From IMG/VR virus record IMGVR_UViG_3300045988_177818, positions 1 through 44,540 of that record: a DNA stretch of 44,540 nt; one strand, given 5' to 3'. A program made the position numbers and the translations under genes. Shown here piece by piece: positions 39,516 to 39,890 of this stretch (its first letter is position 1; each line of letters opens with the position of its first letter). Source of the stretch: a virus. The notes beneath the pieces are model-generated. The model searched no databases, was not told where the DNA came from, and saw nothing but the letters and a program-made list of their open reading frames with translations.

Positions 39516-39523
39516 TATATTTG
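39516..39523 (+). promoter_or_regulatory. -7 box TAtaTTTG, divergent from cI, within a 15-nt core identical to 40858-40872
   Basis: tagtatatttgcatc occurs at both sites. Confidence 0.5.
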
Positions 39524-39530
39524 CATCCGT

Positions 39531-39633
39531 AACACCCGCACGTGCTACGATACAAAATTGGTTAAACATCCCTCACAAGAGGTTTAACATATATGAATAT
39601 CCGTTTCATGTGCAGATGAAGCGGATATTTTAT
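39531..39633 (+). ncRNA. Candidate small RNA of about 100 nt (two hairpins, the second terminator-like)
   Basis: 7-bp gttaaac/gtttaac (39561-39567 / 39582-39588). 14-bp hairpin at 39596-39629 with one U-G pair, followed by UUUUAUAUAU. Confidence 0.4.
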
Positions 39634-39639
39634 ATATCT

Positions 39640-39890
39640 CTATGCCGTAGTTATCCGTTTGAGAATACCGCCGGACGGCATAGTAAACCTACTCGGAGGG
39701 AGCGCAAATAGTAGGACGCAGACTAAATCCCGATGCGTGCGCAGCTTGCAAGTGAAGCGAAATACGGGAGAACCCGGTTAACCTTGTTAATGACCGGGCT
39801 GGGACAAACGGCGTACTTACGCGAGGAAGTTTTAACCTGCATAGCAAAAGGGACAAAATCCCTAAAGGAAAGACTATGCAGAGCCTCCAG
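39640..39890 (+). ncRNA. Candidate structured RNA of about 250 nt, family unknown
   Basis: GC-rich island with at least 7 helices, for example 39640-48/39675-83 (9 bp), 39773-78/39793-98, and 39837-44/39874-81 (8 bp). The track ORFs here look non-coding. Confidence 0.45.

Follow-up and report, generated by a model that had tools for sequence, protein, structure and literature searches.

A conserved structured RNA of about 395 nt divergent from the repressor gene of Bacteroides-type temperate phages, with a possible attenuator leader and a pseudoknotted 3′ domain

We analyzed the whole 44,540-nt stretch of the virus record IMGVR_UViG_3300045988_177818 (hereafter, the window; all coordinates follow its numbering) and focused on the region divergent from its cI-like repressor gene. 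This gene (38971..39498, minus strand) encodes a 175-aa protein with matches to HTH_3 and to PHROG transcriptional repressors, in agreement with an initial annotation that had placed the start of a divergent cI-like gene at 39498. No Cro gene lies beside the repressor; the positions 39513–39907 on the plus strand are occupied by a conserved non-coding RNA of ~395 nt, including its promoter core, in what is a Bacteroides-type phage. The RNA consists of a 5′ module (39529–39637) of three hairpins followed by a U-rich run, and a 3′ module (39640–39907) of ~270 nt with ten helices, including an H-type pseudoknot. The element had initially been described as ending at 39890, which we corrected to ~39907, and as holding a GC-rich block, which was recovered (GC content of 0.49–0.51 over 39600–39899 versus 0.27–0.35 in the flanks).

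The promoter core is the 15-mer TAGTATATTTGCATC (39513–39527, plus strand), which begins 15 bases beyond the cI start codon and includes a Bacteroides −7 box of the sigma-ABfr form TAnnTTTG, TATATTTG (39516–39523, plus strand). Transcription presumably starts at ~39526–39530. The 15-mer is present exactly twice in the 44.5-kb window, compared with a chance expectation of 0.15 at ≤2 mismatches. The second copy (40857–40871, plus strand) is located ahead of an early operon comprising an 83-aa open reading frame (ORF), a 97-aa HTH_17 protein, and further genes, so that the twin of the early-operon promoter reported in the initial annotation is an exact match, albeit with positions shifted by 1 nt. 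At least nine related loci likewise carry a second promoter/operator copy in the same orientation 0.6–1.8 kb downstream. The −7 element is kept at a constant distance upstream of the RNA in all homologues (18/18 diverged representatives), while the sequence further upstream varies with the repressor type; the cassette of the L265 type carries TACTTTTA, in which the last position is changed from G to A. A repressor-specific palindrome lies just 5′ of the −7 box and overlaps the promoter. Since only ~15 nt separate the cI start codon from the −7 box of the RNA, the cI promoter must overlap the 5′ region of the RNA or lie beyond it. The assignment of the RNA to the cro position stands in terms of location only, with the caveat that the HTH_17 protein (41171–41464) of the twin-promoter operon could do the job of Cro.

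Homologues of the element were found in Bacteroides phage LoVEphage, Phocaeicola phage PV4-TP1, and Bacteroides phage BI-TP1, in each case as an unannotated or ‘hypothetical’ intergenic stretch with ~70% identity that is divergent from an S24/LexA-like repressor gene. Motif scans of IMG/VR, human-gut metagenomes, and bacterial genomes (one genome per species) recovered ~90 copies, from which 18 representatives with pairwise identities of 51–98% were chosen. The element occupies the corresponding position in ~80 IMG/VR and human-gut contigs and is common among phages of the human gut. All matches in bacterial genomes were LoVE-type prophages of Bacteroides or Phocaeicola, except for one metagenome-assembled genome titled ‘uncultured Clostridium sp.’ (L241), and relaxed motif scans for more distantly related 3′ domains gave no hit outside Bacteroides and Phocaeicola. 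In one IMG/VR contig, two LoVE-type elements are arranged in tandem, 609 nt apart (L004:3894–4910). Existing phage annotations cover the element with spurious small ORFs, as is the case for LoVEphage.

Comparison of the 18 diverged homologues revealed compensatory base changes, which substantiated the initial proposal of a structured non-coding RNA. The minimum free energy (MFE) of the plus strand had a z-score of −4.7 relative to shuffled sequence. G·U cells far outnumbered A·C cells in the alignments (92 versus 39 in the 3′ module and 17 versus 2 in the stems of the 5′ module), so that the plus strand is the functional one; this asymmetry, together with the orientation of the terminator, ruled out a minus-strand RNA or a leader of cI. 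Searches of all ORFs inside the element against Pfam and PHROG returned no match, and single-base and 2-nt indels between homologue clades disrupt every reading frame. The absence of a credible ORF was thus borne out, and a short protein-coding gene was rejected on the basis of a frame and stop-codon check, in which no frame was conserved, the frame-breaking indels, and the lack of any Pfam or PHROG match.

These data also bear on the notion that the region is not an RNA at all but either a short protein-coding gene or a site acting at the DNA level (a repressor operator, an origin, or attP, for example). Stop-free stretches of 60–90 codons, the small ORFs annotated here in LoVEphage, and the fact that the first and third hairpins (HP1 and HP3) are inverted repeats as DNA are in line with this notion, but the ORFs lack family matches and change frame between clades, the compensated pairs and the G·U asymmetry indicate that a single plus-strand RNA is under selection, and the integrase gene is located elsewhere. 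HP1 and HP3 were also considered as repressor operators and rejected, as an identical type-A 5′ module occurs beside at least six different repressor types, so that the repeats show no relation to repressor specificity, and the actual operator palindromes are found 5′ of the −7 box. We consider this explanation to be extremely improbable.

The RNA did not belong to any family that we searched. No match to Rfam 15 was obtained at the gathering level over the whole window, including the models of ROOL, GOLLD, and HEARO, and a search of 39300–40200 at E ≤10 returned only far-sub-threshold noise, with nothing relevant in the other clades either. A weak resemblance to preQ1-II remained far below threshold (21 bits versus a gathering score of 47). 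The C4 antisense RNA family, to which P1 c4 and P4 CI RNA belong, gave no model match even at E ≤10, and the Rfam models and ARAGORN gave neither tRNA nor RNase P nor transfer-messenger RNA, the latter two as had been suspected from the lack of their motifs. Full-text literature searches found no description of the RNA; a 2026 preprint on genome-language-model RNA mining that deals with Bacteroides and pseudoknots was outside their coverage and may hold a prior description. The RNA family is new in the sense of being absent from Rfam and from phage annotations, whereas leaders of this kind, in which phages or mobile elements combine an attenuator with a structured RNA, are known.

The 5′ module comprises three plus-strand hairpins. 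HP1 (39529–39548) is a weak hairpin (GUAACAC/GUGCUAC) that displays loop X, CCGCAC (39536–39541). The central hairpin HP2 (39560–39588) pairs GGUUAAAC with GUUUAAC and contains an inner CCUC/GAGG. HP3 (39597–39628) is a 13-bp intrinsic terminator followed by a U-rich run (39629–39637), and its loop X′, GUGCAG (39610–39615), is complementary to loop X. The stem of HP3 has a predicted energy of −16.8 kcal/mol, is followed by UUUAUAUA, and co-varies among homologues, and in 14/14 loci scanned HP3 was the top-ranked terminator candidate on the plus strand (−16 to −20 kcal/mol). All three hairpins and the U run are present in every member of the family. The unit of ~100 nt initially described as two hairpins, ending in a hairpin with a U run, thus has three hairpins.

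The 5′ module has a second possible fold. HP1 approximates the reverse complement of the top of HP3, so that the module can re-pair into a single long ‘zipped’ stem capped by HP2. The free energies of the three-hairpin and extended folds differ by 0.2–9 kcal/mol, and each is the MFE structure in some members: the extended fold in 5/14, and the three-hairpin fold, equal to or within 0.1–0.2 kcal/mol of the MFE, in 7 of the 9 others. In the remaining two (L257 and L100), the MFE structure differs from both.

This layout resembles that of cATT of pLS20, the closest system described so far, an experimentally demonstrated attenuator that consists of a weak upstream hairpin, a central hairpin, and a terminator and is located upstream of the antitermination RNA conAn2 (PMC13401043; PMC8191782). 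In pLS20, the extended fold was shown to block termination in vitro and in vivo (PMC13401043). The likeness extends to the leader position directly behind a repressor-controlled promoter, the order of the three segments (PMC13401043), an upstream hairpin complementary to the terminator with an extendable central stem, the similar free energies of the two folds, and the presence of a large structured RNA immediately downstream (conAn2 in pLS20 and the 3′ domain here). There are also differences: the two are unrelated in sequence, and the element described here belongs to a phage replicon of Bacteroidota, whereas cATT belongs to conjugative plasmids of Gram-positive bacteria. Moreover, the complementarity here covers loop versus loop and also takes in the terminator's 3′ arm as far as the U run, internal loops of 10–13 nt set off the short central hairpin from the extension, and any antiterminating effect of the extended fold is putative. 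Because the zipper-type attenuator of pLS20 shares this layout upstream of conAn2, we interpret the 5′ module as an attenuator, which would gate the 3′ domain as an effector.

The loops of the 5′ module showed a distinctive pattern of variation. Loops X and X′ lie 70 nt apart on one strand and retain a co-varying complementarity of 6–7 nt. Eleven distinct loop pairs were found across the family, including CUGCAC/GUGCAG, GUAGCAG/CUGCUAC, GUGCAAG/CUUGCAC, GUACGAG/CUCGUAC, GUUGCGG/CCGCAAC, and GUGGAAC/GUUCCAC. Cognate loops form 6–7 Watson–Crick pairs and most non-cognate combinations only 2–5, although some of the latter, chiefly with type-C variants, reach 6–7 pairs when G·U is counted; further loop variants follow the same cognate-pairing pattern. 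A formal count among eight close relatives showed that 98% of cells in the proposed pairs of the 5′ module were paired, compared with 36–45% in slid controls, and that four of the seven pairs of the loop–loop helix were changed on both sides. Among near-identical relatives, loop columns were more variable than those of other stems (7/14 versus 7/50; p = 0.008). The window itself carries a private U-to-C change at 39537 that gives CCCGCAC instead of the CCUGCAC found in the 15 other type-A copies and lowers the loop–loop pairing from 6 to 4 bp. No consistent third copy of the loop sequences was found elsewhere in each phage, an 8-nt match to the H2 region in LoVEphage being clade-specific.

The fast, compensated evolution of the loops suggests an added trans-acting, specificity-type interaction, for which P4 CI RNA and IsrK would be precedents by analogy. 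In a stronger form of this idea, the 5′ module would be mainly a trans-acting specificity RNA for immunity or incompatibility: the short terminated RNA from one genome would kiss the cognate hairpin loop of leaders being transcribed from the same phage or a co-resident one and force termination, with the 3′ domain being merely what is switched off. Such a role would be comparable to that of P4 CI RNA on seqA/seqC or of short IsrK on its own read-through isoform, and it is compatible with an attenuator leader. In its favour, the complementary sites share a strand and a transcript, as in P4 (PMC4825925); the 11 loop pairs are mutually distinct and pair poorly with one another; loop positions change faster than the rest of the module, with the doubly changed kissing pairs expected of a diversifying specificity; and poly-lysogeny is described as common in Bacteroidales (10.64898/2026.06.25.734096). 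On the other hand, both loops reside in one molecule, in which intramolecular pairing would mask them, and G·U-mediated drift of any helix can also generate compensated variants. The promoter overlaps the repressor operator, so that the RNA should be scarce in a stable lysogen, and the C4/CI RNA family gave no match. We regard this stronger form as unlikely.

Compared with P4 CI RNA, P1–P7 c4 RNA, and Gifsy-1 IsrK, the element shares the origin of a regulatory RNA from the leader of the operon that is controlled and, putatively, the short terminated and long read-through isoforms from one promoter (PMC4825925), as well as type-specific loop sequences and, as a functional analogy only, complementary sites on the same strand of one transcript. 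It differs in the lack of a C4 match and of an RNase P-type processing signal, in that both partners lie inside the short RNA of ~105 nt, and in that a protein repressor is also encoded.

We then turned to the 3′ module. Automatic folding with RNAalifold and a covariation stack scan on MAFFT alignments were noisy and were replaced by an anchored block alignment with hand-defined helices, which were formally counted. For the 64 proposed pairs, 92.4% of cells were paired in alignment A5, compared with 32–43% when the partners were slid. Double-sided changes were found at 20 pairs versus 8.5 ± 1.9 in shuffles, and 0/500 shuffles reached 20. Together with the counts for the 5′ module, this comparison lent covariation support to the helices of both modules. 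Six of the seven helices initially drawn in this block were retained with covariation support (39640–48/39675–83, 39688–93/39710–15, 39716–20/39734–38, 39773–78/39793–98, 39837–44/39874–81, and 39849–53/39859–63). The seventh (39811–14/39819–22) was not conserved and was replaced by the long-range helix P7 (39815–24/39898–907), while a suggested pairing between GGAGG and CCUCC is possible, with covariation neither for nor against it.

The module, which lies on the plus strand throughout, begins with H1 (39640–39683; CUAUGCCGU/ACGGCAUAG), a stem found in six co-varying versions among homologues. H2 (39688–39715; CCUACU/AGUAGG) displays a purine-rich loop, part of which pairs with 39739–42 as tertiary contact T1. 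The region of 39716–39769 forms an H-type pseudoknot from P3 (39716–20/39734–38; ACGCA/UGCGU) and P4 (39728–32/39765–69; UCCCG/CGGGA), which revised the previous view of P3 as a simple helix. P3 co-varies between ACGCA/UGCGU and AGGCA/UGCCU, and P4 between UCCCG/CGGGA, CCGAA/UUCGG, and CCUGA/UCAGG; an inner hairpin of this region displays an invariant CAAGU (39749–53). P5 (39773–39799; CCCGG/CCGGG) follows, with an inner hairpin displaying the invariant CUUGUUAAUG, the CUUG of which is complementary to the CAAG of the P4 loop. The 3′ sub-domain (39815–39907) is closed by P7 and holds P6 (39837–44/39874–81) and P6a (39850–53/39859–62). The T1 contact between the H2 loop and the strand after P3 switches in step among homologues (GUGC/GCAC, GUAC/GUAC, and GUGA/UCAC). 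Furthermore, in the natural recombinant L259 (L259:1517–1809), the H2 loop and the P4 interior are both LoVE-like in an L088-like background, and this joint switch supports the tertiary pairing. Unpaired loops and junctions are highly conserved (CAAGU, CUUGUUAAUG, AACGGCGUAC, ACUAUG, and CACCUU), while the stems co-vary. The invariant P5 loop reads CUUGUUA at 39786–39792, with its complement CAAG in the P4 loop at 39749–39753; CUUGUUA is also complementary to UAACAAG near the 3′ end of 16S rRNA, a sequence which we take to be universally conserved, and this match serves as a lead only.

A compact pseudoknot core with invariant unpaired nucleotides is typical of aptamers and ribozymes, and, with the weak sub-threshold resemblance to preQ1-II, raises the idea that the 3′ domain is a ligand-sensing riboswitch-like element or a self-cleaving or processing ribozyme acting on the mRNA of the genes behind it. 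This is very unlikely in our view: the domain is not followed by an expression platform, whether a terminator or a helix sequestering a start site, the regulated terminator is located upstream of the putative sensor rather than downstream, the downstream genes are mutually unrelated, and no Rfam riboswitch or ribozyme reached its threshold.

The two modules are not strictly coupled. A 5′ module of the window type occurs with two divergent versions of the 3′ domain, and the window-type 3′ domain is joined to a different 5′ type in L097. A search based on the terminator hairpin, rather than on 3′ motifs, recovered ~75 more contigs with the promoter, HP1–3, and cognate loops, in which the cassette precedes GC-rich, non-coding domains of 100–420 nt that fall into at least five unrelated classes (B–F), none of which matched an Rfam family (examples among the IMG/VR contigs L261–L334 are L265:1600–2300, L264, L266, L261, L310, and L315). 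The class C domain (~420 nt; 29 loci), with its GAGGAAAGUCC and GGUGAAA strings, lies between the integrase gene and the terminase small-subunit gene terS (Terminase_2, E = 1.6e-26), just ahead of the latter. The class E domain (22 loci) contains a tRNA-like T arm and acceptor strand. Domains of classes B and D are regularly followed by small ORFs of DUF559/PD-(D/E)XK-like endonucleases (L309:4070–4552, with a DUF559 match at E = 1e-8, L288:3500–3928, and L311), and the RNA and the DUF559-like ORF seem to be exchanged as one unit. On closely related phage backbones, the same site holds class A, B, or D. The window-type domain was also found ahead of Rha regulators and between an SPP1-type portal gene and a 513-aa ORF, which we read as the terminase large subunit despite the lack of a Pfam match. 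The 5′ cassette heads operons of differing content, including early genes, Rha regulators, portal, and the small and large subunits of terminase.

This exchange at one site, like that of accessory cargo, is among the observations that would fit a stand-alone trans-acting 3′ domain, in which the 5′ module would only set the dose; the domain could be a decoy or sponge aimed at a protein, RNA, or defence system of the host, or a self-assembling scaffold like the ornate RNAs. The same applies to the highly conserved loops and junctions within co-varying stems, to the position of the class A 3′ domain upstream of unrelated ORFs, and to the separate twin promoter that many of the phages have for the early operon. 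However, a terminator scan of the loci found none after P7 that would define a 3′ end, a same-strand ORF begins within 30–230 nt 3′ of the element in every case, and the domain is not similar to ROOL, GOLLD, raiA, or OLE in Rfam. We thus judge a stand-alone RNA to be quite unlikely. ROOL and GOLLD are comparable in being phage-borne, GC-rich, multi-helix RNAs of obscure role with loop–loop complementarity, and these ornate RNAs assemble through kissing loops; the element differs from them in its much smaller size, the lack of an Rfam match, the location of the kissing partners in the small 5′ module, and the absence of adjacent tRNA genes.

Strong co-directional terminators are located further downstream of the element in several relatives, at +2342 before exonuclease/RecT genes in L001 and at +818 before the portal gene in L140. 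In the window, a strong co-directional terminator hairpin (GCCGGGCGGUCUGUGAAGAUAGUCCGGU followed by a U run; 44120–44147, plus strand) lies inside the early region and is kept with compensated stem changes in L084, L035, L257, L056, and L259, while the window unit itself meets a convergent gene. Since the cassette heads many kinds of operons, including a late operon, with co-directional terminators downstream and no consistent third copy of its loop sequences elsewhere in the phages, a regulatory leader acting in cis, possibly by antitermination, is our leading guess. HK022 put, Bacillus EAR, and conAn2 are structured RNAs close to the promoter that head long operons of phages or mobile elements with internal terminators; the element has a comparable position in several relatives, less clearly so in the window and in L130. 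Lambda PR′–tR′ produces a short terminated ‘6S’ transcript ahead of the late genes and needs the Q protein. It shares with L265-type and L140-type relatives the order of a promoter, a strong terminator ~100–200 nt further on, and terminase or structural genes, whereas the lambda leader lacks a conserved alternative fold, and no large structured RNA comes after it. The 3′ domain, at ~270 nt, is within the conAn2 range of 260–600 bp (PMC8191782). No Rfam family, including EAR, was matched at E ≤10, and models exist for neither put nor conAn2. The differences from these antiterminators are that no ConAn1-like partner was found, that the downstream operon is short in the window, and that the antitermination activity of the element is putative.

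The repressor-adjacent promoter, the conserved bistable leader containing a terminator, and the conserved pseudoknotted domain are all selected as plus-strand RNA. We propose that they form a two-part leader at the head of phage operons in temperate phages of Bacteroides and Phocaeicola, combining a repressor-controlled attenuator with an effector RNA, possibly for antitermination; we give this proposal about an even chance of being correct. In this scheme, the Bacteroides-type promoter would initiate RNA a few bases ahead of HP1, and the 5′ module would act as a zipper-type transcription attenuator that also yields a short terminated RNA. The attenuator would set the number of polymerases that read on, and the short RNA may feed back in trans on the attenuator through its cognate loops. 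The 3′ domain, as the read-through product, would be the effector: most likely an RNA-based processive antiterminator that acts on the elongating polymerase in cis, or else a controller of the downstream phage genes by other means.

Several points weigh against this proposal. Transcription start, termination, and read-through are all deduced from sequence. In the extended fold, pairing of the terminator's 3′ arm reaches right to the U run, while pLS20 captures only the 5′ arm and loop, and a 3′ arm that is paired beside the U run means that the extended fold may still terminate. In the window, only a 72-codon ORF and a convergent gene come after the unit, and the early operon is served by a twin promoter of its own; antitermination in cis is not obviously needed there. 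The short operon in L130 ends at a terminator. The occurrence of the same cassette on at least five unrelated 3′ domains, some of which always precede DUF559-like genes, implies that the 3′ domain may be cargo rather than a general antiterminator. Finally, no ConAn1-like processivity protein was seen in the phage.

A broader picture, which is possible if rather doubtful, is one of modular RNA-only control in Bacteroides phages. A portable promoter-plus-zipper cassette would gate at least six unrelated, interchangeable classes of structured RNA (A–F), with fast-evolving kissing loops as immunity or incompatibility determinants among co-resident phages, and novel processive antitermination RNAs, or a novel ribozyme or aptamer, would be among these classes.

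Some features of the window surrounding the element are also of note. The repressor ORF, at 175 aa compared with 256–263 aa in relatives, stops just past the S24 GESM serine motif and is abutted by a C-terminal fragment of DUF3800 (38675–38986; together 38675–39498, minus strand). The repressor was probably truncated through rearrangement and may therefore be non-cleavable or defective; with the private U-to-C change at 39537, this hints at a decaying or altered prophage. A gene for a 188-aa membrane protein (40203–40769, minus strand), co-oriented with cI, overlaps the 72-codon ORF tail to tail by 4 nt (within 39988–40769), so that read-through from each side would be antisense to the other. 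A tRNA-like element was discerned by eye at 41745–41866 (plus strand), with an acceptor CTCCTTC/GAGGGAG, a D arm GCTC...GAGC, a T arm GCACG-TTCGAGT-CGTGC, and a long insert resembling a variable arm; ARAGORN and the Rfam tRNA model made no call. The non-coding GC-rich stretch continues from it to ~42230, and the same region follows a 78-aa gene in L084 and L035. A second local GC peak, of 0.55–0.56 at 42500–42800, lies inside overlapping ORFs.

LoVEphage-like phages and their temperate relatives rank among the most prevalent viruses of the human gut, and their lysogeny–lysis switch in Bacteroides is barely understood. The element described here is located at this genetic switch, is conserved in structure, and is missing from Rfam and phage annotations. 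Should the 5′ module prove to be a zipper-type attenuator, a mechanism recently reported for plasmids of Firmicutes would extend to phages of Bacteroidota, and if its loops confer specificity, an RNA layer would be added to phage immunity. The cassette could also be a compact regulatory part for Bacteroides engineering, and new functional classes of RNA may be represented by the 3′ domain and the five partners that can replace it.

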